Positions 2,273 through 57,998 of a stretch of 64,000 nt of DNA are shown piece after piece; position 1 is the first letter of the stretch; each line of letters opens with the position of its first letter. The stretch covers positions 98,462 through 162,461 of the forward strand of contig DAIOWH010000001.1 in NCBI GenBank assembly GCA_036758585.1. The letters are read 5' to 3'. Position numbers and translations under genes: made by a program. The stretch comes from Planctomycetia bacterium. Its GTDB lineage: Bacteria > Planctomycetota > Planctomycetia > JALXBF01 > JBGPMX01. A model generated the notes under the pieces. The model had not been told where the DNA came from. It saw only the letters and a program-made list of their open reading frames with translations, and ran no database searches.

Positions 2273-5200
2273 ATGGCGAAAACGAAGGCGAAGCGACACC
2301 AGAAGTCGCGGCGGCTTGTTCATGGCAACTCGTCGCCAGGCGGATCGCGCCTTGGCTTTCTGGAGCGGCTTGAGTCGCGCGAATTGCTGAGCGATTTCCA
2401 GCCCGTCCAGGTTGGTTTCTCGTGGCTCACCCCCGGTCAGCCCACCGTCGTCCAATTCAATGCGGCAGGTCAGTGTCTGGGGGTAACGGGTCCGGCGGCA
2501 GGCGACCACGATGATTGTGCGATCGGCGACGTCGGCCCTGACCGCGTGACGATTCAATTCAGTCGCAACATCGATCGGCGCACGTTCAACGCCGCCGCAG
2601 ACGTCACGGTGACCGGCGATCTCGACGCGACCGATCCGTTTCGCGTGACCAGTGGCGTGGCGCGACGCCGCGTGGTTACTATCAACACGGCCGGCGACCT
2701 AGCTACAGGCGCCGACGCCAACCTGACGCTCGGCCTTCGCGACATCAAGGCGAAGGGCAAGTCGGGCGCCTGGCTCGATCCGTGGACGATGACGGTGAAC
2801 GTCAACTCGGACCAGCCGCCGGCGCCCGGCAACACGCCGCCGCGCGTCTTGAGTGTGACGCCCGCAGCGGGCGCCCAGTTGAACGAGTCGCCGAGTTTCA
2901 TCGAGGCATTGCTGAGCGAAGACCTCGACTCGCCGGGCCAGAATGGAATTCAACTCTTCGCCGCCGGGCCTGACGGCAATCTGGGCACGACCGACGACGT
3001 ACGAATCAATCCGAGGCGAGTGGACTACAGTGCGGCGACAGATACGCTGCGCTTCGTGGTAAACGGGCAAGTTGCAGACGGACTCTACCAGGCTCGGGTG
3101 ATGGGTTCGCTGCGTGACGGGGCCGGAAGCAGACTGGACGGCAATGGCGACGGGACGGCGGGCGACGACTTCGTTTGGACGTTTCGCGTTGCATCAGATC
3201 CCGGCGGCGGGCCTACTGACACAACCGCGCCGGGCGTCGTGAGCGTAACGCCGAACGCGGGTGCGACGCTCACGCAGTCGCCGAGCGTCATTGAGGCGAC
3301 GCTGAACGAGGATCTCGATCCGGCCCACTTGCCGGACCAGAACAGCCTTCAGCTTCACGCCGCCGGGGCCGACGGCAACCTCGGCACGGCCGACGACGTG
3401 CGGATCGTTCCGACGCGGGTCGAATACAGTGCCGCGACGGACGTCGTGCGGTTTGTGGTGAACGGTCAACTCGCGAACGGCGCCTATCGTGCTCGTCTCG
3501 TCGGCGACTCGATCCGCGACGCCGCCGGCAACCGCGCGGCCGATTACGCCTGGACTTTCGGCGTGAACGTGCCCACCAATCCACCACCCCCGGGCGACAC
3601 GTCGGCGCCGACGGTGGTCTCAACGAATCCGTCCCCGGGCGCGATCATTACGGAGCCCCTGACGGCGATCGACGTGGTCTTCAATGAAGACCTTGATCCT
3701 GCCACCGTGACGCCTGCCAACTTTGTGCTGAGCGCCAGTGGCGGCGATGGTACGTTCGGCGACGGCAACGAGACCACGATTGCGCCGCAGCGCATCGAGT
3801 ACAGCCCGGCGACCGACACCGGGCGGTTTGTGATCGGCTCGCGTTTGCCCAACGACCTGTTCCAGCTCATGCTCGTCGGCACTGCGTCGATTCGCGACTT
3901 GGCCGGCAACAAGCTGGACGGCGACCGCAACGGTTCCGGCGGCGACAACTTCACGGCCACGTTCAGTGTGGCGGTGGCGCCTCCTCCCGACTCATCGCCC
4001 GGCCCGCACAAGGACGTGCTCGGCGGCGATCCACCGGATGCCATCGCCGACGTGTTCCCAGGTGCGCCGACGCCGACGCTGGACATCAGCGCGATTTCAG
4101 GGTTCGCCGATCCGAACAACCTCTACATCAACGTGCGGTTCAATACGACGCCGCCCGGCACGACGATCGAGGCGCCGTCGGCCAGCGAGCCGAACTCGGT
4201 GTTCGGGTTCATTGACATCGACACCGACCAGGACTTGATCACCCCGAGCTTTCTGACGAACTTCGACCGGACCCCTGCGCCGATTTCCAGCACGCCGGGC
4301 GTCGGCATTGAGTTCGTGGTGGACATCGGTTCCGAAGCGAGGCACCCCGGCTCGGTTGACGTGTTGTACACAGACGAGAAGGTGCCGTTGGCAGGGAACG
4401 ACGATTTCGATTCGCGAGACGATCTCTATATCTACAGGCCGCTGACCGGCGAGTTCTTGATCGGGTTGAACAGCGGTGGTCAGCTTGGCACGGTGCTGGG
4501 CCCGTTCCAGTTCGGAGGCGTGGGTGAGACTCCGATTCTGGGCAATTGGGACCCCGACGGCGCCGGACCGTTGCGAGCGAACGGCGGCGACGACCTCGGC
4601 ACTTTCGACGCGACCACCAGCACGTTCAAGCTCGACCTCAACGACGATCGCCGGCTGGGTGAGGATCGCGACGGCGATGGACTGCTCGACCCGACCGAGG
4701 ACCTGAACAACAACGGGCAGCTTGACGTGGGCGAGGATGCCAACGGCAACGGGTTGCTCGACCTCAGCGAAGACCTGAATGACAATGGCGGGTTTACCGA
4801 AGACTTGAACGGCAACGGCCTGCTCGACCCGACCGAGCAGGACCTGAACAACAACGGCAGGGCCGACAATCTGGTCGACACCGAGACGTTTGTGTTTGGC
4901 TTTGCGGCGCCCGATCCCGCCGACCAGGTCTTGTTCGGCGACTGGGACGAAGACGGCGACACGGATATCGGCGTCTATCGCGCGGCGACAGGCGAATTCC
5001 TTCTCGACCTGAACGGCAACTACGAGATTGACGCGGCCGTGACCGATCCGATTCCCGAGCTTCCCTTCCGGTTTGGTCCGATATCGACGACGAACGTAGC
5101 CCTGGTGGGAGATTGGAACGCCGATGGCCGCACGGAAGTCGGTGTGTTCGTGCGGGGCGAGGACCTGAACGGCGATGGATTCTTCAACGACGGAACGGCT

Positions 5201-20130: not shown

Positions 20131-23100
20131 ATGACTAACGCGACGGGCAAACGATTCGGAGCAGCACGGCGCCTCGGCCGCACCCGGCCGACGCTTCGCG
20201 CCCGGCACGCCGGACAGGTCGAGCGCCTCGAGTCGCGCGAACTGCTCAGCTCGTTTGCGCCGGTCGACGCCAAGTTTCTCTGGGGTGCGGCTGGCCCGAC
20301 TAGCTTGGCCCAGGTCTGGGTGAACGCCTCCGGCGATTGTGTGGGCGTCTCCGGTCCGCAGATGTTTCTGCATGAGGATTGCCTGCTCGGCGAAGGGGCC
20401 GGCCCGAACCGCGTCGTCGTTCAGTTCAACGCGAACATCGACAAACGCAGCTTCAACGCCGCGTCGGACGTCGTCGTCGGCGGCGACCTGGACCCATCGA
20501 ATCCGTTCCGCGTGTTCGGCGGCACGGCCCGACGCGGCCTCTTGACCCTGTTCACCACCGGCGGTTTCTCCGCGGACGACGGCTCGGAGATGACGCTGAC
20601 GATTCAAGGGATTTCGTCCAAGGGTCGCAAGCGGACGCCTGCGGTTGTGATGGACCCGTGGACAGTCACGTTGCAAGTAACGCCCGATCCCCCGCCGCCT
20701 CCGCCCCCGGTCGAGGTCTGTGGGGACAATGTCGACAACGACGGCGACGGCCAGGCCGACGAGGGCTGTGCGCCGCCGCCCCCGCCACCGGTCGAGGTCT
20801 GTGGGGACAACATCGACAACGATGGCGACAGCCGGACCGACGAAGACTGCGTCGTCACGCCGCCCGATCCGCGACCTTCGGTCTCGCCCGGCGACATCAC
20901 GCCGCCTCTCGTTGTGGGAGTGTCGCCGACGGTCGATGCCGTGATCGGCACGTTGCCCACCACGATTTCGGTCGCCTTTAGCGAACCAGTCGACCCGACC
21001 ACGTTGTCGACCAGCTCCATTCGCCTGTTCACCAGCGGCGGCGACGGCCGATTCGGCGATCGAGCCGACCGGCCGATCGCAACGAGCGGCGTCACCTACA
21101 ATGCCGCCGGTCGCACCGCGGTGCTGCAACTGGCCGAGACGCTCGGCGATGAGGTTTATCAGATTCAAGTAGGCGGAGCGCACAGCATCAAGGACCTGGC
21201 GGGCAACACGCTCGACGGCGACCGCAACGCTCTGGTCGGCGGCCTGTTCACCAGCGAGTTCCAGATCGACCGCTCGACGCCGAGTTTTGACCTCTCGCTG
21301 GCGCCGGTCGCGAACACCGGCATCTCCACCGACGAGACTACGTCGCGCCAAGACCATATCGGAGTCACCGGCCAGGTGAGCGACGGCAGCCTGAGTCGAC
21401 TTGGCGGCTATCAGGTGGCGATGGACGTCGATGGAGACGGCTTCGACGACGGCGGCGCCATCACCGACGCGAATGGGTATTTCACAGTTACGTCGCTCGC
21501 ACAGATTGCGACGTCCGGCCGGCATGATATCGACGTACGAGTAACCGACCGCGCCGGCAACTCGTCCGTGCGGACCACGACCATCAACGTAGATGCCGAC
21601 GCGCCGCTGCTAATGCCGATCAACCTTGCCGAGCGTCCAGACCCGAACGATTACCGAATAACGCCCGCAGGCCACGTGGTTCGGTTGTTTGACGAGTCTC
21701 CGACCGAACTGCGCATTGCCGTGAGCGAGAACCTGGCGCCCGGTCCGGCGCGCGACTTGGACAACTACCGCCTGGAACGTACCGGACAACTTGGTCTGTT
21801 CTCCAGTCCGACCGCGTTGGATTTGTCGTCTCAGATTAGTGAGGCCCGTTTCGATGAGACGACGCGTCAAATCGTGGTCACGCTGGCGTCCGCGCTCGCC
21901 GACGGCGAGTATCAGTTGGTCGTTCGCAGTCATGGCACGATCACCGACGTAGCCGGCAACCACCCAGTGTCGGACGGCATTCTGGGTTTCTATGTGGGCG
22001 CGTACCCTGCTGTGCGCGCCTTCACTCCGGCGGTGACGCCGATGACGCCCGACAACGTGCGGCAGATGCCCACCGTGCGCAGCAGCTCGATTGAATACTA
22101 CGGCCGCGACGGTGGGTCGCGGTCCGAGCAGTCCACCAGTTTCGGGTCTCGGTCTGCCGGTTTGGCCCGACTCACCGTGAACGAGTCGGAGACGTTCGGC
22201 AACAGTACCAACAATCCATTCGATCCTCAGATGCCTGGAACCGCCGAGCCGATCGCCGGGACGACGTTCCCGTTCGGCAACTTCGGCGTCGATCAGGGTG
22301 AAGATCCCGAGGCGTTCATTTTTGGCGACATCGACTCCGGACTTGACGTCGACGTGTATTCGTTTCGCGCCAAGGCGGGCGAGTCGGTGCGGTTCACGCT
22401 CACCGACCAGTTCGGCTTTTTCCCGTTCGGCGGCGAAATCGCGATCATCGACCTCGGTACCGACAACGCCGTCGGCGGTGCGGGCGACGCCGCCGACCGC
22501 ACGCTCATCAGCAACGTACACAAGTTCATCGATCCAGACTTCGCTTTTTTTCAACTCCTCGACCTGTCACAAATCGAGATTACGATCACCGGCCTGACCG
22601 GCCGCGCCCTGGACAATCCCGAAAACGAGCTGTTGAACCCGCTTACATCCGAACGCCGCGACCCGAGCGACCGCACGTACCTGTTGCGCGTCGACCCGTT
22701 CATCGGCAGCTATGTGATCTCTGCCGAGATGTGGGAGTCCTTCAGCCGCGATACGAACCAGAGCCAAATCGTCTATGTTGATTTCGACGGGCAGGAAGAC
22801 GTGTCCTTTCCGAACTATTTTACGGGCGGAACCTTGTCGGTCGACATGCCGCCGTTCGACATTCGCGATTTCGGCATCGACCCGATCTTTCAGAATCAGT
22901 TCATCGACACCGTGATGGCGGCGGTGCGAGAGGACTTCGAGCAGATCCGTGCGGAAGGAATCAATCCAGCCTACAATTTCCAACTGCGCGACAGTCTGTG
23001 GCATCCCGATCCAGGGAACGCCAACAACGTGCTTCGCGTGGTGGTAGGCGGCGCGGGCGACCTGATAGGTTTCCAGCCGTCGTTTGGGCTGGCGGGCATT

Positions 23101-31930: not shown

Positions 31931-32064
31931 ACATTGAAAGGGGTTCGTTTAACCCGCAGCCGCAGGCGAGGCACAACAAACGCCAGCCATGCCTCGCCTG
32001 CGGCTGCGGGTTAAACGACCGAAGCCGATTTCAGACCCCTATTCAATGCGACACAGTACTAAGC
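31931..32064. repeat. Palindromic intergenic repeat element, copy 1 (core stem TTTAACCCGCAGCCGCAGGCGAGG / CCTCGCCTGCGGCTGCGGGTTAAA, 20-nt loop, outer imperfect inverted repeats CATTGAAAGGGG.../...CCCCTATTCAATG)
   Basis: Stem arms at 31948-31971 and 31992-32015. About 85-90% identical over ~130 bp to copy 2 (44393-44554). The core stem is shared with copy 3 (57903-57984). Confidence 0.8.
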
Positions 32065-44392: not shown

Positions 44393-44554
44393 CATTGAAA
44401 GAGGTTCGTTTAACCTCGTTTAACCCGCAGCCGCAGGCGAGGTGAGGCACAACAACGCCAGCCGTACCTCGCCTGCGGCTGCGGGTTAAACGACCGAGGC
44501 GGATTTCAGACCCTATTCAATGCGGCACAGTACTTAGCGGCACAGTACTTAGTC
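44393..44554. repeat. Palindromic intergenic repeat element, copy 2 (same orientation and loop as copy 1; carries small internal tandem duplications)
   Basis: Core stem arms at about 44419-44443 and 44468-44491. Duplicated cgtttaacc and gcggcacagtacttag units. Lies upstream of the VWA gene and downstream of the PP2C gene. Confidence 0.8.
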
Positions 44555-47358: not shown

Positions 47359-47432
47359 GCGCCCGTAGCTCAACCGGATAGAGCAGCGGATTTCTAATCC
47401 GCCGGTTGCAGGTTCGACTCCTGCCGGGCGTA
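47359..47432 (+). tRNA. tRNA-Arg (anticodon TCT)
   Basis: Manual cloverleaf: acceptor GCGCCCG/CGGGCGT (G1-U72 wobble), D-arm GCTC-aaccggata-GAGC, anticodon arm GCGGA-tTtCTAa-TCCGC, variable loop cggtt, T-arm GCAGG-TTCGAct-CCTGC, discriminator A. CCA is not encoded. Confidence 0.85.
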
Positions 47433-47441
47433 CTTGGCTGG

Positions 47442-49790: not shown

Positions 49791-52700
49791 CTACTGCGTC
49801 TCGACCGTCACGGCCATCACGACGGGGGCCGTGGCGTCGGGGCCCTTCACCAACTCGATCCGTTCGATCGTGTCGGTGCGCTTCGGTTGAACGGCGAGGT
49901 AGCGAATCTGCTGGCCGCGCAGGCGGAACGCGAGCTTCGACTGCGGCACATCGACGACGCGAATGTAGTCGGCGAAGTGGACGCCGTTCTTCAGTTCGTG
50001 GTCTTCGGTCGCGCCGTCGGCGTAGTGCAAGCGCACGATCATCGACACGGTCTCGTCGCGATTGAACGGGAACGCCCAGCCGCCCACGCCCGAGAGCAAG
50101 TGAATCGCTCGCGCCGGCGCGTTGCACGGCAGCGTCACCGACCTGGGCATCTTGGGGGGCAGCGCGCCCTGTGGACCGTTGAGCAGAACGGCGTTCTTCA
50201 CGCGGTCGCCCTGCGGATCGACCAGCACGAACGGCACGCCCTCGACCGTCTTTGGCGACCAGTCGCGGAAGATGAGTCGCTCGACGTCGGAGTCTTCGTT
50301 GATGAACATGCCGCGCGTGCTGACGACCGTGGCGACCTTGGCGAGGTCGAGCGGCAGATACTTGCCGCGGGCGGCGAGAAACTCCAGCAGGTTCACGAGT
50401 TCCTCGCGAGTGATCTGTTTCTCGAACCCCTCGGGCATGAGCGATTTCGGCGATTCGAGCAACTCCTCGACGTCCTCGCGCAGTACGATCTGCTTCTTGC
50501 CCTCGGGGTCGAACAGTTCGAGCGCGGTCTTTGTTTCCGAGGCCAAGAGGCCGGTGAGCACGCGGCCGTCTTTGGTGGCAACCAGGTACGCGCGGTAGTT
50601 GCCCTCGACCGAGCGGCTGGGGTCGAGGATGTTCGTTAGGAGTTCGATCTTCGGGTGTACGGCCATGCCGGTGAGGTCCGGGCCGACTTTCGACCCTTCG
50701 CCCGAATGCGTGTGGCACTTGGCACAATGTTTGGTGAACGCCGCCTTGCCCGCGGCCACGTCGCCTGTTTCCTTCGTGATCGGCTCGAACTCCTCCATCA
50801 CCTTCTGCCGGTCCGGGTTCGGCAGGCGTCCCTTGCGCGCGAGCACCGTCTTCGCCCGCTCCGCGATCGCCTTGTTGGGATGCCCGGCCAGCGTCGTCGC
50901 CTGGTCCGACGCCAGATCGGTCGAATCGACCTTGCCCGCTTCAATCGCATCGAGCAGCGCCTTCGACCACGCCGGCCGCTTCACGAGTGCCGCCAGGGCC
51001 GCCCGTCGCGTCGCGGGAGTCAGCGACGGCCAGCGCTCGAGGATCGCCGCGCCGACTTCGTCCGAGCCGCTTTCGCCGAGCGCTTCGATGATGCCGCCGG
51101 ACAGCGCGGGACTCGCCGCGGGCGTGACGAGATCGAGCAGCGATTTCATCGACTCATCGTCGCTACCGACGGCAACCAGTTGCCGCGCGGCGGCAACACG
51201 CGACTCGTCTGCGAGTTTTGTATCGCCGATCCGCGTCAGCATCGTCTTTCTGATTCCAGCCGCCGACGCCTCGAACTTGCCGCGAATTCCCATCCGACCG
51301 GCAAGCTTCGCGAGCGCGAGTTGTCCCTGAGGTGATAGCTTGCCGACCATCGCGTCTAGCGCGTCATTGGCGTCCTCGTCAAGTTTCGACCTGTGCTCCG
51401 ATGACCAACCGGCAGCGAGTCCAGCGACTGCCGCATCGGCAACGATCGGAACTTCCGAAGCGCTCAGTGAACGAATCACGACGCCGATATCCTCGTCATC
51501 AGGTTTGCGACGTGCGAAGTTTTCGGCAACGGTGCGTACGGCGTCGGTGACTCGTTTCGTTGACGCTACATCCGACTTCAAATTCAGCGCAGCCGCGGAA
51601 AGAAATCCCACGTCACTCTTGGCGCCCGCAACAATGGCGGCCAATGGGATCCACGGATCAGAAGCACTCTGTGGTTCCGAAAGGAACCTCGCGGCGTTCT
51701 CACCTGAAACCGTGGACGGTTCTGAATTCGCGCTGAACAGGAGCATTGCCAATCGCTCCTTCGGATGACCAGCCACGTAACGGTCCCGCTGCGGCGGTAA
51801 AAGTATGCCGTTGAGTCGCGGTGTCTCGGCGAGGCCCTCCTCAGTCTGATGGGCGTGAAGTGCCGAGAGTTCAATCGCTGTCGGAAGCCCATCGGCCTTT
51901 CGACCCACCTTGTCTCTCACGTAGCTCATCAGAGTCTCGTGGAGCTGCGGCGCCAGTTCTTTCCGCTTGCTTTCGACGAGCAACCGTTGCGCAGTCAGGC
52001 GCACCCACATGTTCTTGTCCGAAAAGGCGGCAAGAAGTTGCTCCGGCGTCGCGCGGTCGAGTCGAATGGGCGGCTGGGGTCGAGTCTTCGAGCCCCCAGC
52101 CTTTTCGTTAGCGTAGTGCAGGCGGCCCGCCTGCAATGTCGTCAAAGGAAACCGCAGGCGATCCGCCTGCACTACGACTTCCTTGGGAGTCGCTTTGTCG
52201 CCCGCAGCCTGGGTGCTCGAAGAATCGACCCCAGCCACCCCAACGCTGGACGATTTCTCCGCGTCGTGCACGACGCGATAAATCCGCCCGTGCGTTTGGT
52301 CGCGGAGTGGAGTTTCGTAGGCGTTGCCGCGGCCGGTCTTGAAGCCGGCGGGCGTGGGGTTGTGCTGAATGATGTAGTTGTACCAGTCGAGGATCCAGAC
52401 GGCGCCGTCCGGACCGACCTTGGCATCGACCGGGCCGAACCACGGGTCGGTCGAGGCCACGAGGTTCCAGCCGTCGCGGGCGATGAAGCCGGAACCGTTC
52501 GGCACGAGCCAGTCGATGTGCACCAGCCGCGCGGTCGGCTCGCAGACGAACACGGCGCGGTTCCAATATTCCGGCGGGAAGCTGCGGGCTGTGTACACCT
52601 CGCAGCCGGCCGCGGCCGTGAACCCGCCGTGCCAGTCCATCTGACGGAAGTCGCCGACGATCGGGTGTACCTTATTGTGGTCCTGGATTCCGGCGCTGCC

Positions 52701-54500
52701 GACGCCGTGCCAGCCGCGGACCATCTCGAAGTAGCGGTTCGGGATCGCCATGTGGACGAGATGCTGGTTGTTCGCCGTCGAGCAGAACACGTCGCCGGTC
52801 TCGCTGAAGCCGAGGCCCCAGGTGTTGTTCGAGGTGGGGGTGATGACCTCGAAGGCGGTGACGCGGGGGAGAGATTGCTGATTGCTAATTGCTGATTGCT
52901 GATTGCCAGATTTCGTCACTTGCGTCTCTTCCGTCCTTCTTGTCCCGGAAGAAACCTCGGTCGACCCACCGTTTAGTTTGAAGCGAAAGATGCACTGGCG
53001 GAACGAAATCTCTTCCTCCCTCTCCCCGTCTGCGGGGAGAGGGTTGGGGTGAGGGGTAGTCGGCACGTTGTTCGAGTTCACTAGTTTTTTTGCTTGCTCC
53101 CCAGACCCCTCACCCCGGCCCTCTCCCCGCAGACGGGGAGAGGGAGCAGTCGTGACGGCGGAGGCCGGCCGCGTCACTTTCACTTTGCCGCCGGAGTAGC
53201 CGCACACGCCCCAAATCCAGTTGTCGAGGCCGTAGCGCAGGTTCGAGGTGACGGCGTGCGTGTCGCCGCGGCCGAAGCCGGTGAGGATGATCTCGCGCAC
53301 GTCGGCCCGGTCGTCGCCGTCGGTGTCCTTGAGGAACAGGAGGTGCGGGGCGCACGCGACCACGACTCCGCCGTGCGTGTTCACGATCGCGGTCGGGATG
53401 TTCAGCTTGTCGGCGAACACGGTGAACTTGTCGGCGCGGCCGTCTTGGTTGGTGTCTTCGCAAATCTTGATCTGGTCGTTGCCGTTTTGGTGCGGGTCGT
53501 CGAGCAGCTTGTTCGGGTAGTCGACGCTCTCGATGATCCAGAGACGTCCGCGTTCGTCCCATGAACCGGCCATCGGCTTCTTGATGTCCGGTTCGGCGGC
53601 GAACAGTTCCGCGCGGAACCCTTCCGGCATGTGCATATGTTTGATGGATAGTTCGGGCGGCAGCGGCTTGGCGATCTTGTTCAGGTTCTCGCCCTGTGTG
53701 CCCCACTTCTGGCCGGGGGTGTAGTGAGGAATCGGCGCGCCGGCGTCGACGTATTCGAGTGGCGGCAGGTCGTCGGTCAGGCGGCCGGTCGCCCAGCGGA
53801 TGCCATTCTCGACGAGCTTGTGAAACTGCGGTTGCCCGAAAGTTTTTTCATCGTGGCCGAGCGCAGTGTAGAAGACGCGGCCTTTGCCTTGCTGACGTAC
53901 CCAGCAACTCGGCTCATAGCCGCCCGCCTCGTCGCGTACCATCACCGCCTGAATGTCGGCGGCGACATCGGAGTGCGTGTAATCCTCGTCTGTGACCTCG
54001 AATCCGCTGAGTCCGCGCACGGCGGGATGCTGTGCGTCGATGATCCGAGTTTGGAACTTGCGGAACCCGTGCTTCGAGAACCGGCCGCCGACAAGAGACA
54101 CATACCTTGTGCTCGATCCGAAACATGCGGACGCACAGTGCAACGGGACGAATCCCTTGCCGCCCTCGACGAACTCAACCAGCGCCGCTTCCTGCTCGGC
54201 CGACATTGTGGTGTGATTGGCGTACACGACCAGTCCGTCGTATTCGCCGAGCGTCTTTGCGTTCAAGTCGGCGACGCGATCGGTGTAAGTCAGCTTGATG
54301 CCGCGCTCGGCCAGCACAGGCTCGATCTGCTTGAACCGGGCGGCCGGCCGGTGGTGGCCGTTGTCGCCAAGGAATAGGATGCGGATCGGCGTCTGCTCGC
54401 CGGGGTCCTCGGCGCCCGACCAGGCCAACGTCGCACCGCCCAAGAGCAATAGTGTCGTGACAGTAACGGCACGGCTGAGATTACGCATGGATCTCTCCAC
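49791..54500 (-). CDS. PVC-type fusion protein: ThuA-like (class-I glutamine-amidotransferase-like) domain + putative membrane-bound dehydrogenase beta-propeller + HEAT repeats + CxxCH cytochrome c domain (1569 aa)
   Basis: Signal peptide MRNLSRAVTVTTLLLLGGATLAWS. ILFLGDNGHH...ALGHDEKTF (ThuA-like). Propeller segments (WIIESVDYPN.., WILDWYNYIIQHNPTP..). Long HEAT/ARM-like helical region. CAKCHTHSG heme-binding motif at about 50711-50725 followed by LMPEGFE. This architecture is characteristic of Planctomycetes/Verrucomicrobia. Confidence 0.85.
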   Translation of the reverse strand: MERSMRNLSRAVTVTTLLLLGGATLAWSGAEDPGEQTPIRILFLGDNGHHRPAARFKQIEPVLAERGIKLTYTDRVADLNAKTLGEYDGLVVYANHTTMSAEQEAALVEFVEGGKGFVPLHCASACFGSSTRYVSLVGGRFSKHGFRKFQTRIIDAQHPAVRGLSGFEVTDEDYTHSDVAADIQAVMVRDEAGGYEPSCWVRQQGKGRVFYTALGHDEKTFGQPQFHKLVENGIRWATGRLTDDLPPLEYVDAGAPIPHYTPGQKWGTQGENLNKIAKPLPPELSIKHMHMPEGFRAELFAAEPDIKKPMAGSWDERGRLWIIESVDYPNKLLDDPHQNGNDQIKICEDTNQDGRADKFTVFADKLNIPTAIVNTHGGVVVACAPHLLFLKDTDGDDRADVREIILTGFGRGDTHAVTSNLRYGLDNWIWGVCGYSGGKVKVTRPASAVTTAPSPRLRGEGRGEGSGEQAKKLVNSNNVPTTPHPNPLPADGEREEEISFRQCIFRFKLNGGSTEVSSGTRRTEETQVTKSGNQQSAISNQQSLPRVTAFEVITPTSNNTWGLGFSETGDVFCSTANNQHLVHMAIPNRYFEMVRGWHGVGSAGIQDHNKVHPIVGDFRQMDWHGGFTAAAGCEVYTARSFPPEYWNRAVFVCEPTARLVHIDWLVPNGSGFIARDGWNLVASTDPWFGPVDAKVGPDGAVWILDWYNYIIQHNPTPAGFKTGRGNAYETPLRDQTHGRIYRVVHDAEKSSSVGVAGVDSSSTQAAGDKATPKEVVVQADRLRFPLTTLQAGRLHYANEKAGGSKTRPQPPIRLDRATPEQLLAAFSDKNMWVRLTAQRLLVESKRKELAPQLHETLMSYVRDKVGRKADGLPTAIELSALHAHQTEEGLAETPRLNGILLPPQRDRYVAGHPKERLAMLLFSANSEPSTVSGENAARFLSEPQSASDPWIPLAAIVAGAKSDVGFLSAAALNLKSDVASTKRVTDAVRTVAENFARRKPDDEDIGVVIRSLSASEVPIVADAAVAGLAAGWSSEHRSKLDEDANDALDAMVGKLSPQGQLALAKLAGRMGIRGKFEASAAGIRKTMLTRIGDTKLADESRVAAARQLVAVGSDDESMKSLLDLVTPAASPALSGGIIEALGESGSDEVGAAILERWPSLTPATRRAALAALVKRPAWSKALLDAIEAGKVDSTDLASDQATTLAGHPNKAIAERAKTVLARKGRLPNPDRQKVMEEFEPITKETGDVAAGKAAFTKHCAKCHTHSGEGSKVGPDLTGMAVHPKIELLTNILDPSRSVEGNYRAYLVATKDGRVLTGLLASETKTALELFDPEGKKQIVLREDVEELLESPKSLMPEGFEKQITREELVNLLEFLAARGKYLPLDLAKVATVVSTRGMFINEDSDVERLIFRDWSPKTVEGVPFVLVDPQGDRVKNAVLLNGPQGALPPKMPRSVTLPCNAPARAIHLLSGVGGWAFPFNRDETVSMIVRLHYADGATEDHELKNGVHFADYIRVVDVPQSKLAFRLRGQQIRYLAVQPKRTDTIERIELVKGPDATAPVVMAVTVETQ
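52874..52908. repeat. Tandem heptamer repeat (ATTGCTG-like x5) inside the PVC dehydrogenase coding sequence
   Basis: attgctg attgcta attgctg attgctg attgcca read directly. It encodes the low-complexity NQQSAISNQQS stretch on the minus strand. Local GC is far below the gene average. Confidence 0.75.
53019..53144. mobile_element. MITE-like insertion inside a coding sequence: near-perfect 39-bp inverted repeat (CCTCTCCCCGTCTGCGGGGAGAGGGTTGGGGTGAGGGGT ... ACCCCTCACCCCGGCCCTCTCCCCGCAGACGGGGAGAGG) flanking a 47-bp AT-rich core, kept in frame
   Basis: The arms at 53019-53058 and 53106-53144 match at 37 of 39 positions as reverse complements, and each arm also contains its own short hairpin. The core (agtcggcacgttgttcgagttcactagtttttttgcttgctcc) is AT-rich relative to the gene. 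Together with the heptamer repeat it adds about 95 low-complexity residues (..RGEGRGEGSGEQ..PHPNPLPADGEREEE..) between propeller segments. Confidence 0.55.
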
Positions 54501-56088: not shown

Positions 56089-56645
56089 CCAGCGCAACTG
56101 TTCGGGCAACCCTGGAAGCCGCCATTGGCTTGCTGGAGCGACTGAACCTTCCTTACGCGCTGATGGGAGCGATGTCGCTCGGGTTCTATGGCCGATTGCG
56201 AGCGACCGACGACGTCGACCTATTGGTTGCAGGGGACAGCCAGACCCTCGATCGCCTTCGTGATGAAGCGCAACGTGAAGGTTTTTCGATCGACGAACAG
56301 TGGTCGCTGTACAATCCGGGGTTGCGCGACACGCACGTCCGATTGGTCCGCTCGGGCGTCCCTGTCGATATGATGCTGCCGCGCGACGATCAGGACCGGT
56401 CCGCCGCCGACCGCCGTCGTCAGCACGTGATAGAGACCGGTACCATCTGGGTCGTCGCGCCCGAGGACTTGATCCTTCAGAAACTCAAGGCAGGTCGCCC
56501 CCGCGATTTCGACGACGCAATCCCGATCTTCGCGCGGAACCGAGCGCAGCTCGACCACGACTATCTCAATGAATGGGCGCGGCGGCTTGGTGTGCGCGAG
56601 GAATTGGATTACCTCTGGAGTCAAAGCGGCCGAGCCGAACCATGA
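56085..56645 (+). CDS. Minimal nucleotidyltransferase-fold (Pol-beta superfamily) protein, about 186 aa
   Basis: GAMSLGFYGRLRATDDVDLLV matches the hG[GS]x9-13Dh[DE] NTase signature. A second acidic cluster (VVAPEDLILQKLKAGRPRDFDD) follows. The start is taken as the ATG in the ATGA overlap at 56085; the track's 56055 ATG is an alternative. Confidence 0.5.
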   Translation: MTSATVRATLEAAIGLLERLNLPYALMGAMSLGFYGRLRATDDVDLLVAGDSQTLDRLRDEAQREGFSIDEQWSLYNPGLRDTHVRLVRSGVPVDMMLPRDDQDRSAADRRRQHVIETGTIWVVAPEDLILQKLKAGRPRDFDDAIPIFARNRAQLDHDYLNEWARRLGVREELDYLWSQSGRAEP

Positions 56646-56661
56646 GATTGCCGGCAGGGAA

Positions 56662-57777
56662 TCACTGCAGAGTGAACTCCGGCAGGCGCACGATTTCGCC
56701 GCCCTTCAGAGCCGACTGGTGGGCGCAGATGCCCACGCACGTCCAGTTTGCCGACTGCACGGCGTTCGGCCATGGGTCGCGGTTGCCGACCAGGGCGCTG
56801 ACGAACTCGTTCACCAAGTGCGGGTGCGATCCGCCGTGACCGCCGCCCTGAATGAACGACAGGTGGTCGGCGTCTTGAATGGTCCGCGTGAACTGCCGAA
56901 TCGGCTCGGGCAGCAGGTGTGCGTAGTCGGGCGACTGGACCTTCGACGGAATCTCCGGCTCCGGCTTCTTGGCTGTGTGAATGATGTGCGGCTCATGCTC
57001 GACCAGCGTCCACTCGAAACTCTTCTTGGTGCCGTACACGTCGAAGCTCTCGCGGTACTGACGGGCCGTATCGTACAGGAACCGCCAGATGTGACAGGCG
57101 ATGTCCGAGTCCTTGATCTTGATGTGGCAACTCTCGACAGCGAACTTGTTGCCCGACTTTTTCTGGATGTCCTCGCGCACCGTGCCCGACCCGAAACAAC
57201 TGACGTATTCGGCCCGGCCGTTCACCAGGCCCAGGCACGGACTGACGACATGCGTCGCGTAGTGCATCGGGATCATCCGCTCCCAGTACGCCGGCCAGCC
57301 GTCCATGTCTTGCGGGTGCGATGCGGCCATGTGCTGAATCTTGCCCAGCTCGCCCTTGGTGTACATTTCTTTGACGAACAGGAACTCGCGGCTGTACACG
57401 ACGGTCTCGGCCATCATGTACTTGAGGCCGGTCTTTTTGACGAGGTCGCAAATCTCTTTGCACTCTTCGACGGTCGTGGCCATCGGCACGGTACACATCA
57501 CGTGCTTGCCGGCTTTGAGCGCCGCGGCGGACATCGGTGCGTGGTCGGGGATCGGCGAGTTGATGTGTACGAAGTCGACGCTGGGATCCTTCAGCACGTC
57601 GTCGTAGTTGGTGTAGCGTTTTTCAATGCCGAAGTGATCGCCGACCTTGTTCATCTTGTCGGCCGATCGCTGGCAGATCGCGTACATGTTCGCGTTGGGG
57701 TGTTTCTGATAGATGGGGATAAACTCGGCCCCGAACCCAAGCCCGACGATTGCGACGTTGACTTTCTTGTTGCTCAT
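56662..57777 (-). CDS. Gfo/Idh/MocA-family NAD(P)-dependent oxidoreductase
   Basis: N-terminal Rossmann VNVAIVGLGFGAEFIP and family-typical EKP-like region. 371 aa. Spot counts of 60-nt windows give about 52-56% GC versus about 67% in the giant genes. Confidence 0.85.
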   Translation of the reverse strand: MSNKKVNVAIVGLGFGAEFIPIYQKHPNANMYAICQRSADKMNKVGDHFGIEKRYTNYDDVLKDPSVDFVHINSPIPDHAPMSAAALKAGKHVMCTVPMATTVEECKEICDLVKKTGLKYMMAETVVYSREFLFVKEMYTKGELGKIQHMAASHPQDMDGWPAYWERMIPMHYATHVVSPCLGLVNGRAEYVSCFGSGTVREDIQKKSGNKFAVESCHIKIKDSDIACHIWRFLYDTARQYRESFDVYGTKKSFEWTLVEHEPHIIHTAKKPEPEIPSKVQSPDYAHLLPEPIRQFTRTIQDADHLSFIQGGGHGGSHPHLVNEFVSALVGNRDPWPNAVQSANWTCVGICAHQSALKGGEIVRLPEFTLQ

Positions 57778-57891
57778 GTTTGCGAATCTCCAAGTGATCT
57801 GGTGAGCCAGCCCATCGGCGGCCCGACAGTATACAAGCGAGCGACCGGCTCAGCGAGTGTGCAGGGCGCAAAGGGTGTATTTCCGTAGCTG

Positions 57892-57998
57892 CGCTTCGCT
57901 CGTTTAACCCGCAGCCGCAGGCGAGGTCGTGTTTGATCCGTGCAATTCGCACGATGCCGACCTCGCCTGCGGCTGTGGGTTAAGCGAGCGCCGAATGC
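57892..57998. repeat. Palindromic intergenic repeat element, copy 3 (same 24-bp core stem, different loop and extended outer stem GCTTCGCTCG/CGAGCGCCGAA)
   Basis: Core arms 57903-57926 and 57961-57984 (one mismatch: ggctgTgggttaa). The loop contains its own small hairpin cgtgc-aattc-gcacg. Located in the divergent intergenic region between the oxidoreductase and the fragmented surface-protein gene. Confidence 0.75.

Follow-up and report, generated by a model that had tools for sequence, protein, structure and literature searches.

The stretch of DNA analysed here (the window: 64,000 nt, or 64 kb, of contig DAIOWH010000001.1 from a Planctomycetia bacterium) contains a long gene for a dehydrogenase, and three extra segments, designated inserts A, B and C, lie in frame within its coding sequence. 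We consider it probable that dispersed repeats, of kinds that are normally intergenic, have colonised this gene three times in frame: as an inverted pair of the BoxC/PIT/TM motif (A), as a segment bearing heptamer repeats (B) and as a nested palindrome (C). In the best-supported version of this account the three colonisations were independent, the gene was tolerant of them, and the inserts are read through as disordered loops. The gene, the inserts and the piece of host sequence between A and B are as follows.

49791..54500, minus strand: host gene, from its open reading frame (ORF) and translation; 4710 nt, 1569 amino acids (aa), stop-free
53016..53174, minus strand: insert A; 159 nt, 53 aa in frame (aa 443-495), peptide TRPASAVTTAPSPRLRGEGRGEGSGEQAKKLVNSNNVPTTPHPNPLPADGERE; limits from alignment A2
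52968..53015, minus strand: host beta-hairpin EEISFRQCIFRFKLNG between A and B; 48 nt, 16 aa
52860..52967, minus strand: insert B; 108 nt, 36 aa in frame (aa 512-547), peptide GSTEVSSGTRRTEETQVTKSGNQQSAISNQQSLPRV; limits from alignment A2
52080..52253, minus strand: insert C; 174 nt, 58 aa in frame (aa 750-807), in the linker between propeller and HEAT repeats

The propeller region was aligned first with 13 homologues and then with 80, the latter giving an 81-sequence alignment (A2). The sequence-only reading of this region, made before the present analysis, had described a single insertion of about 280 bp and about 95 aa. Alignment with the 80 homologues separated the extra residues into two blocks, A and B, split by a conserved 16-aa beta-hairpin of the host, and a third insert, C, had been missed. 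The hairpin fits the homologue consensus FxQGxYRFKPDG, in which F, Q, R, D and G are invariant or nearly so. In the 81-sequence alignment the columns of insert A are filled by the window sequence alone, and the anchors GYSG and NNTWG, 32 aa apart in 77 of 92 homologues, are 119 aa apart here; the extra DNA is absent from the homologues, in keeping with the earlier description of an insertion. Insert C, found by a whole-window scan for inverted repeats, lies about 700 bp downstream of A and B in the same gene; it is missing from 12/12 aligned homologues, and the spacing of its anchors is 28 aa in 56 of 65. No homologue examined has A or C. Site B is occupied in a single homologue, a Gemmataceae protein (P0025, from the metagenome-assembled genome (MAG) DASXAN010000528.1, L242 1718-1870), by a different and unrelated perfect palindrome, GGGAGGGCGAGGCTCCTGCCGAGCC..., which is in frame, sits in the same loop as insert B and has a stem of about 30 bp (-90 kcal/mol).

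The ORF is open through the whole region, so the preserved reading frame of the earlier description stands; the gene call in ENA uses an alternative start, ATG 54488, which gives 1565 aa. The protein consists of a ThuA domain, a six-bladed DUF7133 propeller, HEAT repeats and a CxxCH cytochrome c domain, with Pfam matches to ThuA, to DUF7133 (split into 2 stretches) and to Cytochrom_C. An AlphaFold2 model built on the 81-sequence alignment had a predicted template modelling score (pTM) of 0.83 and a predicted local distance difference test score (pLDDT) of at least 90 in the propeller, whose neighbours in a Foldseek search are aldose/glucose dehydrogenases of the pyrroloquinoline quinone type (2ism, 3das and 2g8s). 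The host hairpin is modelled as two strands (construct residues 213-219 and 222-229; pLDDT 91-93). Inserts A and B have no secondary structure in the model (pLDDT 32-51 and 48-55, respectively) and the strands that flank them score above 90, which agrees with the placement in a tolerated loop that had been suggested. Since A and B enter and leave one tight beta-hairpin, its topology implies that both must emerge at the same end. As modelled, they would be disordered excursions at one end of this hairpin, in a propeller that is otherwise predicted with confidence.

The residues that are invariant in three alignments (aa 282-870, covering the propeller and the start of the HEAT repeats) are all kept in the host protein. 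Because all invariant residues of the propeller and linker alignments are retained, the insert-bearing protein probably still works.

Insert A has the following parts.

53016..53057, plus strand: left arm, TT-loop type, with a complete BoxC/PIT/TM motif at 53018-53056 (CCCTCTCCCCG-TCTG-CGGGGAGAGGG-TT-GGGGTGAGGGG)
53058..53104: spacer of 47 nt, 49% GC, with a T7 run
53105..53146, minus strand: right arm, CCG-loop type, a second TM motif in inverted orientation
53147..53174, minus strand: the part of insert A beyond the inverted repeat, about 28 nt, encoding TRPASAVTT; boundary from alignment A2

The inverted repeat seen earlier is therefore real and has a 47-nt spacer, but its arms, as delimited by a repeat finder, are 42 nt each and 95% complementary (53016-53057 / 53105-53146) rather than matching at 37 of 39 positions. 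Each arm holds its own hairpin with an 11-bp stem, followed by a third, G-rich block. The arm pattern had 0 matches in 100 shuffles of the window; the third-block pattern was observed twice, a number reached in no shuffle. The terminal part (53147-53174) can form a small imperfect hairpin, GTGAC-G-GCGG...CCGC-GTCAC. Among the sequences examined, no second copy of the spacer was found.

The pattern CCCTCTCCCCG-N4-CGGGGAGAGGG-NN-GGGGTGAGGGG, which has 35 specified bases, was scanned against one genome per species, and both arms match it without a mismatch. It was matched at 120 or more loci, including Alpha-, Beta- and Gammaproteobacteria, Acidobacteriota, Myxococcota, Planctomycetota, Gemmatimonadota and Dormibacterota. 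The motif corresponds to the G/C-rich intrastrand triplex motif 'TM', formerly called BoxC or PIT, which occurs in E. coli and in over 260 further prokaryotes (Holder et al. 2015, PMC4666352) and was described earlier by Maher and colleagues in 2000, as cited in PMC4666352. A TM consists of a C/T block, a loop of 3-5 nt, a complementary G/A block, a loop of 2-3 nt and a G/T block, about 34-39 nt in all; E. coli K-12 has 23 copies, 'always located intergenically', and each of its five inverted pairs combines an arm of TTA-loop type (A) with one of CCG-loop type (B) (PMC4666352). Compared with the TMECO sequences of Table 1 in that paper, the left arm is identical at 32-33 of 39 aligned positions and the right arm at 35 of 39 with TMECO-18, the overall range against four TMECO sequences being 31-35/39. 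In a blastn search, 1310 of 5426 E. coli genomes had an unannotated site matching the right arm (92.7% over 41 nt). The pair in the window has TTG and CCG loops and thus fits the rule of unlike loops in the E. coli inverted pairs; unlike second loops were seen also in the TM pairs of four other loci (L053, L079, L109 and L113). Judged by its sequence, insert A is a BoxC/TM inverted pair. The unusual point is its intragenic position, at aa 443-495 of an intact ORF where the E. coli copies are intergenic, and this has no bearing on the identity of the sequence.

Insert C is the insert for which copies elsewhere were found directly. Its elements are these.

52068-52240: nested palindrome, with outer arms at 52068-52102 / 52206-52240 and inner arms at 52112-52134 / 52154-52176
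52105..52189, minus strand: core of insert C, a dispersed repeat of 85 nt

The outer arms are 35 nt long and 89% complementary. The core is identical at 84 of 85 positions to an unrelated locus (L243, JGI 3300009594), and at 82 of 85 to an intergenic site on another contig (L244, k141_7352) of ENA sample ERZ27245623, the sample that also holds a second assembly of the host gene (see below). At least one of the inserts, C, is thus a copy of a dispersed repeat. The contig k141_7352 also carries, at 4880-5000, an intergenic TM pair between a GFO_IDH_MocA gene and pheT; its two motifs stand back to back with the third blocks outward and both have CC-type second loops, whereas the pair in the window is convergent.

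Insert B differs from A and C in having no palindromic structure as a whole, its predicted fold being no better than that of shuffled sequences (z = 0.15). Two elements were recognised in it.

52873..52906, plus strand: heptamer array (GATTGCT)x4.9, one unit being the variant AATTGCT, translated as NQQSAISNQQS; found with Tandem Repeats Finder
52924..52955: hairpin with a 10-bp stem, GTCTCTTCCG / CGGAAGAAAC

The heptamer array had been noticed at the outset and is real, and its pattern had no matches in shuffles of the window. The (RATTGCY)n family to which it belongs is widespread, with at least 120 metagenome loci, arrays of 4-17 units and frequent inverted pairs of arrays; judged by eye from their flanks, the metagenome arrays are mostly non-coding in appearance. 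Outside the heptamers, insert B had no DNA or protein relative among the sequences searched. Of the five occurrences of the 8-mer GGGGAGAG in the window, four are in the TM arms and one lies at 52865-52873, at the outer edge of insert B and directly adjoining the heptamer array; this last copy may be either what is left of a TM purine block or a chance match.

A cluster of both kinds of repeat was seen in a Phycisphaeraceae MAG (JAHCJI010000006.1, L109 350-870), where an intergenic TM pair lies between inverted (GATTGCC)n / (GGCAATC)n arrays, the cluster continuing into a tandem array of units of about 21 nt, CTTGACTCAACAGACAAACGG. This locus suggested a composite element made of heptamer arrays together with TM pairs, but the idea does not hold generally: among the 120 heptamer-array loci listed, a TM-like motif was present at only 4 and at none of them within 400 nt, and around arrays GGGGAGAG was hardly commoner than expected (2 observed, 0.5 expected).

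The base composition of the inserts shows signs of a non-coding origin. The host gene has GC contents of.65/.45/.80 at codon positions 1, 2 and 3 (63.5% over the whole gene), while the profiles of insert A (.70/.62/.70; 67% overall) and insert C (.64/.55/.69) are flat by comparison. Insert B has 54% GC with.50/.56/.56 at the three positions, its third-position value falling under the 5th percentile of 36-codon windows of the host. On the coding strand of each insert, only the frame that is used is stop-free. The GC content of about 50% attributed earlier to the region did not hold, since positions 52870-53150 have 56.2% and the values are low only in insert B, in the host hairpin (46%) and in the spacer.

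Folding with ViennaRNA, which covers Watson-Crick and wobble pairs only, bore out the very stable mRNA hairpin that had been proposed: insert A on the mRNA strand is predicted to form a 42-bp hairpin of -106.9 kcal/mol (z = -10.7). The plus strand gives -114.4 kcal/mol, the TT/CC difference between the arms producing G.U pairs on this strand and C.A mismatches on the other. For insert C the predicted mRNA hairpin has -124.5 kcal/mol.

If dispersed repeats did colonise the gene, the insertions would have been made by whatever process spreads such repeats, be it transposition of the repetitive extragenic palindromic (REP)/REPIN type or repair or recombination at hairpin-forming DNA; TM is associated with local genomic instability (PMC4666352). 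Selection would have retained copies only where the length and phase of the insert kept the protein readable. The inserts would then be carried into the mRNA and would add 147 translated aa to the protein in the form of flexible surface loops; GEGSGEQAK, SGNQQSAISNQQSLPR and FPLTTLQAGR are among the peptides predicted from them. The TM motif would be pre-adapted to intragenic life, given that 125/125 instances among the matches listed have no stop in 5 of the 6 frames, a property that makes it unusually easy to tolerate inside a gene. The mRNA hairpins of 42 bp or more would probably lower expression, by slowing ribosomes or as targets of RNase III, and a function for them is unlikely.

Several points weigh against this account. 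There is one TM pair in the 64-kb window. In E. coli, TM is reported to be intergenic throughout, and it has no link to a mobile element and no known mobilising enzyme or parent transposon (PMC4666352). In the sequences examined neither the spacer of insert A nor insert B as a whole has a second copy, so that recent mobility can be claimed for the core of C only. The closest homologue is only about 65% identical (56% for the best homologue when the inserts are counted), which leaves no empty site at the nucleotide level from which exact boundaries or a target-site duplication could be defined. No direct repeats were seen next to the inverted-repeat ends of A (..AATCTCTTC on one side and CAGTCGTGA.. 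on the other), the true ends being uncertain in the absence of an empty site. Lastly, selection on the gene may be relaxed, and it could be a paralogue that only looks intact.

This last point leads to the alternative that survives best, gene decay: three insertions would have disabled or crippled a paralogue that is redundant, and the frame would still be open through a passing accident or through no more than weak selection. Three insertions are a heavy load for one gene, PVC-type dehydrogenases usually have many paralogues, and mRNA hairpins as stable as those predicted (-107 and -124 kcal/mol) should interfere with expression. However, the ORF runs for 4710 nt without a stop or frameshift and the alignment-invariant residues noted above are all present. 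Each of the three inserts has a length divisible by 3 and occupies the only stop-free frame of the coding strand, an outcome that by a rough estimate would be expected in well under 1% of random triple insertions; all lie in loops or the linker and none in strands; and they are identical in two genotypes. We therefore think decay unlikely.

It is less likely still that the elements were retained for a function, whether as an mRNA hairpin that tunes translation or decay, as the source of a plus-strand antisense RNA or as a slippage switch in the heptamers. The stability of the hairpins, the more favourable plus-strand fold with its G.U pairs (-114.4 against -106.9 kcal/mol) and the fact that gain or loss of one 7-nt unit would shift the frame are what can be said for it. 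Yet a scan of 52600-53400 for promoter-like and terminator-like sites found none, and an Rfam search with permissive thresholds returned only sub-threshold matches to generic hairpins (miRNA precursors). In E. coli, neither promoter nor terminator activity was seen for PIT/TM elements (PMC4666352). With 4.9 units the heptamer tract is short; it is also interrupted and does not differ in copy number between the two assemblies. Shuffled sequences fold as well as insert B does, and the homologues manage without any of these inserts.

Repeats in a metagenome assembly invite chimeric joins, and such joins might have put intergenic repeats into the gene; local misassembly had been named earlier as one possible explanation. 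Here host coding resumes in frame around each insert, including the 48-nt hairpin between A and B, with frame and codon phase preserved three times. Moreover, a MEGAHIT contig in ENA (ERZ27245623, k141_51735) is 100% identical over 16.6 kb, all inserts included, and encodes exactly the same protein. It departs from the window inside a tRNA-Arg(TCT) gene at 47391, and since it is structurally different beyond that junction it represents a different genotype with the same inserts. Misassembly is unlikely in the light of this second contig, and an artefact of this kind has in our estimate very little chance of being the explanation. Least credible of all is an origin in situ, as lineage-specific loop extensions that resemble repeats by chance: insert B and the spacer of A have no relatives in the sequences searched, but both arms of A fit without mismatch a 35-base motif common to at least 120 loci in many phyla, the core of C is 84/85 identical to an unrelated locus, and the flat codon-position GC is unlike that of evolved coding sequence, so that for C and for the arms of A this origin is in effect already refuted.

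Colonisation by dispersed repeats thus remains the account that we prefer, and the question arises of how far it extends beyond this gene. Among about 125 pattern matches listed, there were four genuine proteins in which a TM is in frame with Pfam domains on both sides.

L002 1065-4649: in-frame TM in Mfd, Bordetella MAG
L027 1-2898: in-frame TM in an oxoprolinase, Rhodoplanes, with a second such insert further downstream in the ORF
L051 116-2302: in-frame TM in LeuRS (leuS), Gemmatimonadales MAG
L104 4760-7345: in-frame TM in UvrD, an alphaproteobacterium

A peptide search with inserts A and B gave 10 weak matches, all of them to a translated TM pair and none to insert B. The translated pair, SPSPRLRGEGRGEG...APHPNPLP..GE, was found after the N-terminal domain of Fpg (a protein fragment with a Pfam match), and also near the N-terminus of MiaB and C-terminally in DUF2849 proteins. 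When insert A was compared by phmmer with the full library, 13 matches were obtained, and Pfam domains were found in 0 of the 10 that were scanned; these 13 are probably spurious ORFs over intergenic repeats and are unusable for counting in-frame cases. A literature search found no papers on the translated peptides (LSPQAGRG, PLPASGER and others) and nothing relevant on intragenic BoxC. We put forward, tentatively and as a possibility that may well prove wrong, that BoxC/PIT/TM pairs form a protein-coding palindrome family across phyla, one that recurrently enters conserved genes in frame and adds loops of the form PSPRxRGEGxGEG / PHPxPLPxxGER. If this were true, an active and so far unrecognised mechanism would be spreading TM within and between phyla.

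Some other features of the window and of the second assembly may be mentioned. The tRNA-Arg(TCT) gene at which the assemblies diverge lies at 47359-47433, just downstream of a GH2 gene, and k141_51735 shares only its 3' 43 nt. The segment of k141_51735 beyond it (L001 17099-24698) encodes a sigma-70 factor, a type I restriction-modification system (HsdM and an EcoEI R C-terminal domain), an SLFN/AlbA_2 protein and a DEAD helicase, and has the appearance of a defence island that entered one genotype at the tRNA gene. Another palindromic repeat, with arms TCGTTTAACCCGCAGCCGCAGGCGAGG of 29-33 nt, is present at 31945-32018, 44416-44493 and 57897-57990, in each case apparently between ORFs and in one case directly after the stop of ORF 56569-57888; it looks like a conventional REP-like family of the source genome. 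At 20692-20843 there is a GC-rich tandem repeat of an 81-nt unit (1.9 copies, 88% identity) with many GAC (Asp) codons.

The feature is real and largely explained, and is a modest curiosity rather than a new kind of system. An enzyme fold appears to have absorbed 147 repeat-derived residues at three sites, two of which flank one beta-hairpin of the propeller. BoxC/TM, although reported as strictly intergenic in E. coli, can occur within a coding sequence with an open frame, and does so also in housekeeping genes of other phyla. The gene offers a handle on two questions, namely how a cross-phylum motif spreads and how often repeat DNA seeds protein loops. For annotation, such inserts mean inflated protein lengths, split Pfam matches and spurious small 'hypothetical proteins' (P0144 and P0145 are examples).

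As to classification, the part of the earlier proposal of a miniature inverted-repeat transposable element (MITE) that stands is that dispersed repeat families are involved; a strict MITE is not indicated, as no target-site duplication was seen and no parent transposon is known. Terminal inverted repeats are present in A (42 nt, 95%) and in C (35-nt outer arms, 89%). Near-identical copies were found for the core of C (82-84/85) and, among the sequences examined, for neither the spacer of A nor insert B; no target-site duplication was seen at the ends of C or, in three copies, of its core. A REP/REPIN-like label, or one modelled on the Rickettsia palindromic elements (RPEs), suits the arms better than MITE. 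Two further candidates were dropped: programmed ribosomal bypassing, because the inserts are open and in frame with no stop to bypass, and inteins, because no intein motifs were found and the inserts are simply open in frame.

Several known systems may be compared with the inserts. Cyanobacterial STRR heptamer repeats and the microsatellites of contingency loci are tandem heptanucleotide arrays in which a change of copy number within an ORF shifts the frame. The array of insert B is likewise intragenic with a 7-nt unit, but it is short (4.9 units), interrupted by one variant unit and invariant between the two assemblies, and so does not resemble a phase-variable contingency locus. The TM of E. 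coli shares with insert A its three-block sequence (CCCTCNCCCC, loop, GGGGAGAGGG, 2-3 nt, GGGGTGAGGGG) and the mixing of TT-loop and CCG-loop arms in inverted pairs. The E. coli copies are intergenic with stems of 9-10 bp, while the pair in the window lies in a coding sequence, is read in frame and has stems of 11 bp and a 47-nt spacer.

REP doublets and REPINs (mobilised by RAYT), together with intragenic ERIC (Delihas 2007, cited in PMC10969869), are alike in being inverted GC-rich palindromic doublets that form a long hairpin, and in being dispersed, without obvious target-site duplication and, in some cases, within genes whose frame stays open. Most REP families are confined to one species, whereas TM is nearly unchanged across phyla; no RAYT gene was found here, though no search aimed at one was made. 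The closest known phenomenon is that of the RPEs, palindromic repeats that lie in frame in conserved genes of Rickettsia (Ogata et al. 2000 and 2002, in the summary of PMC10969869); by analogy the inserts would work like RPEs, with no claim that they belong to that sequence family and no sequence similarity to be expected. Both are palindromes of about 150 bp (here A, 159 nt, and C, 174 nt), in frame in conserved genes, absent from orthologues and placed, here by prediction, at sites that the fold tolerates, and both contribute extra peptide segments, translation being predicted here from the open frame. Multi-copy status applies on our side to the TM arms and the core of C only. The hosts differ as well: RPEs belong to a reduced intracellular genome, whereas the gene described here is that of a free-living GC-rich bacterium and involves three different repeat families.

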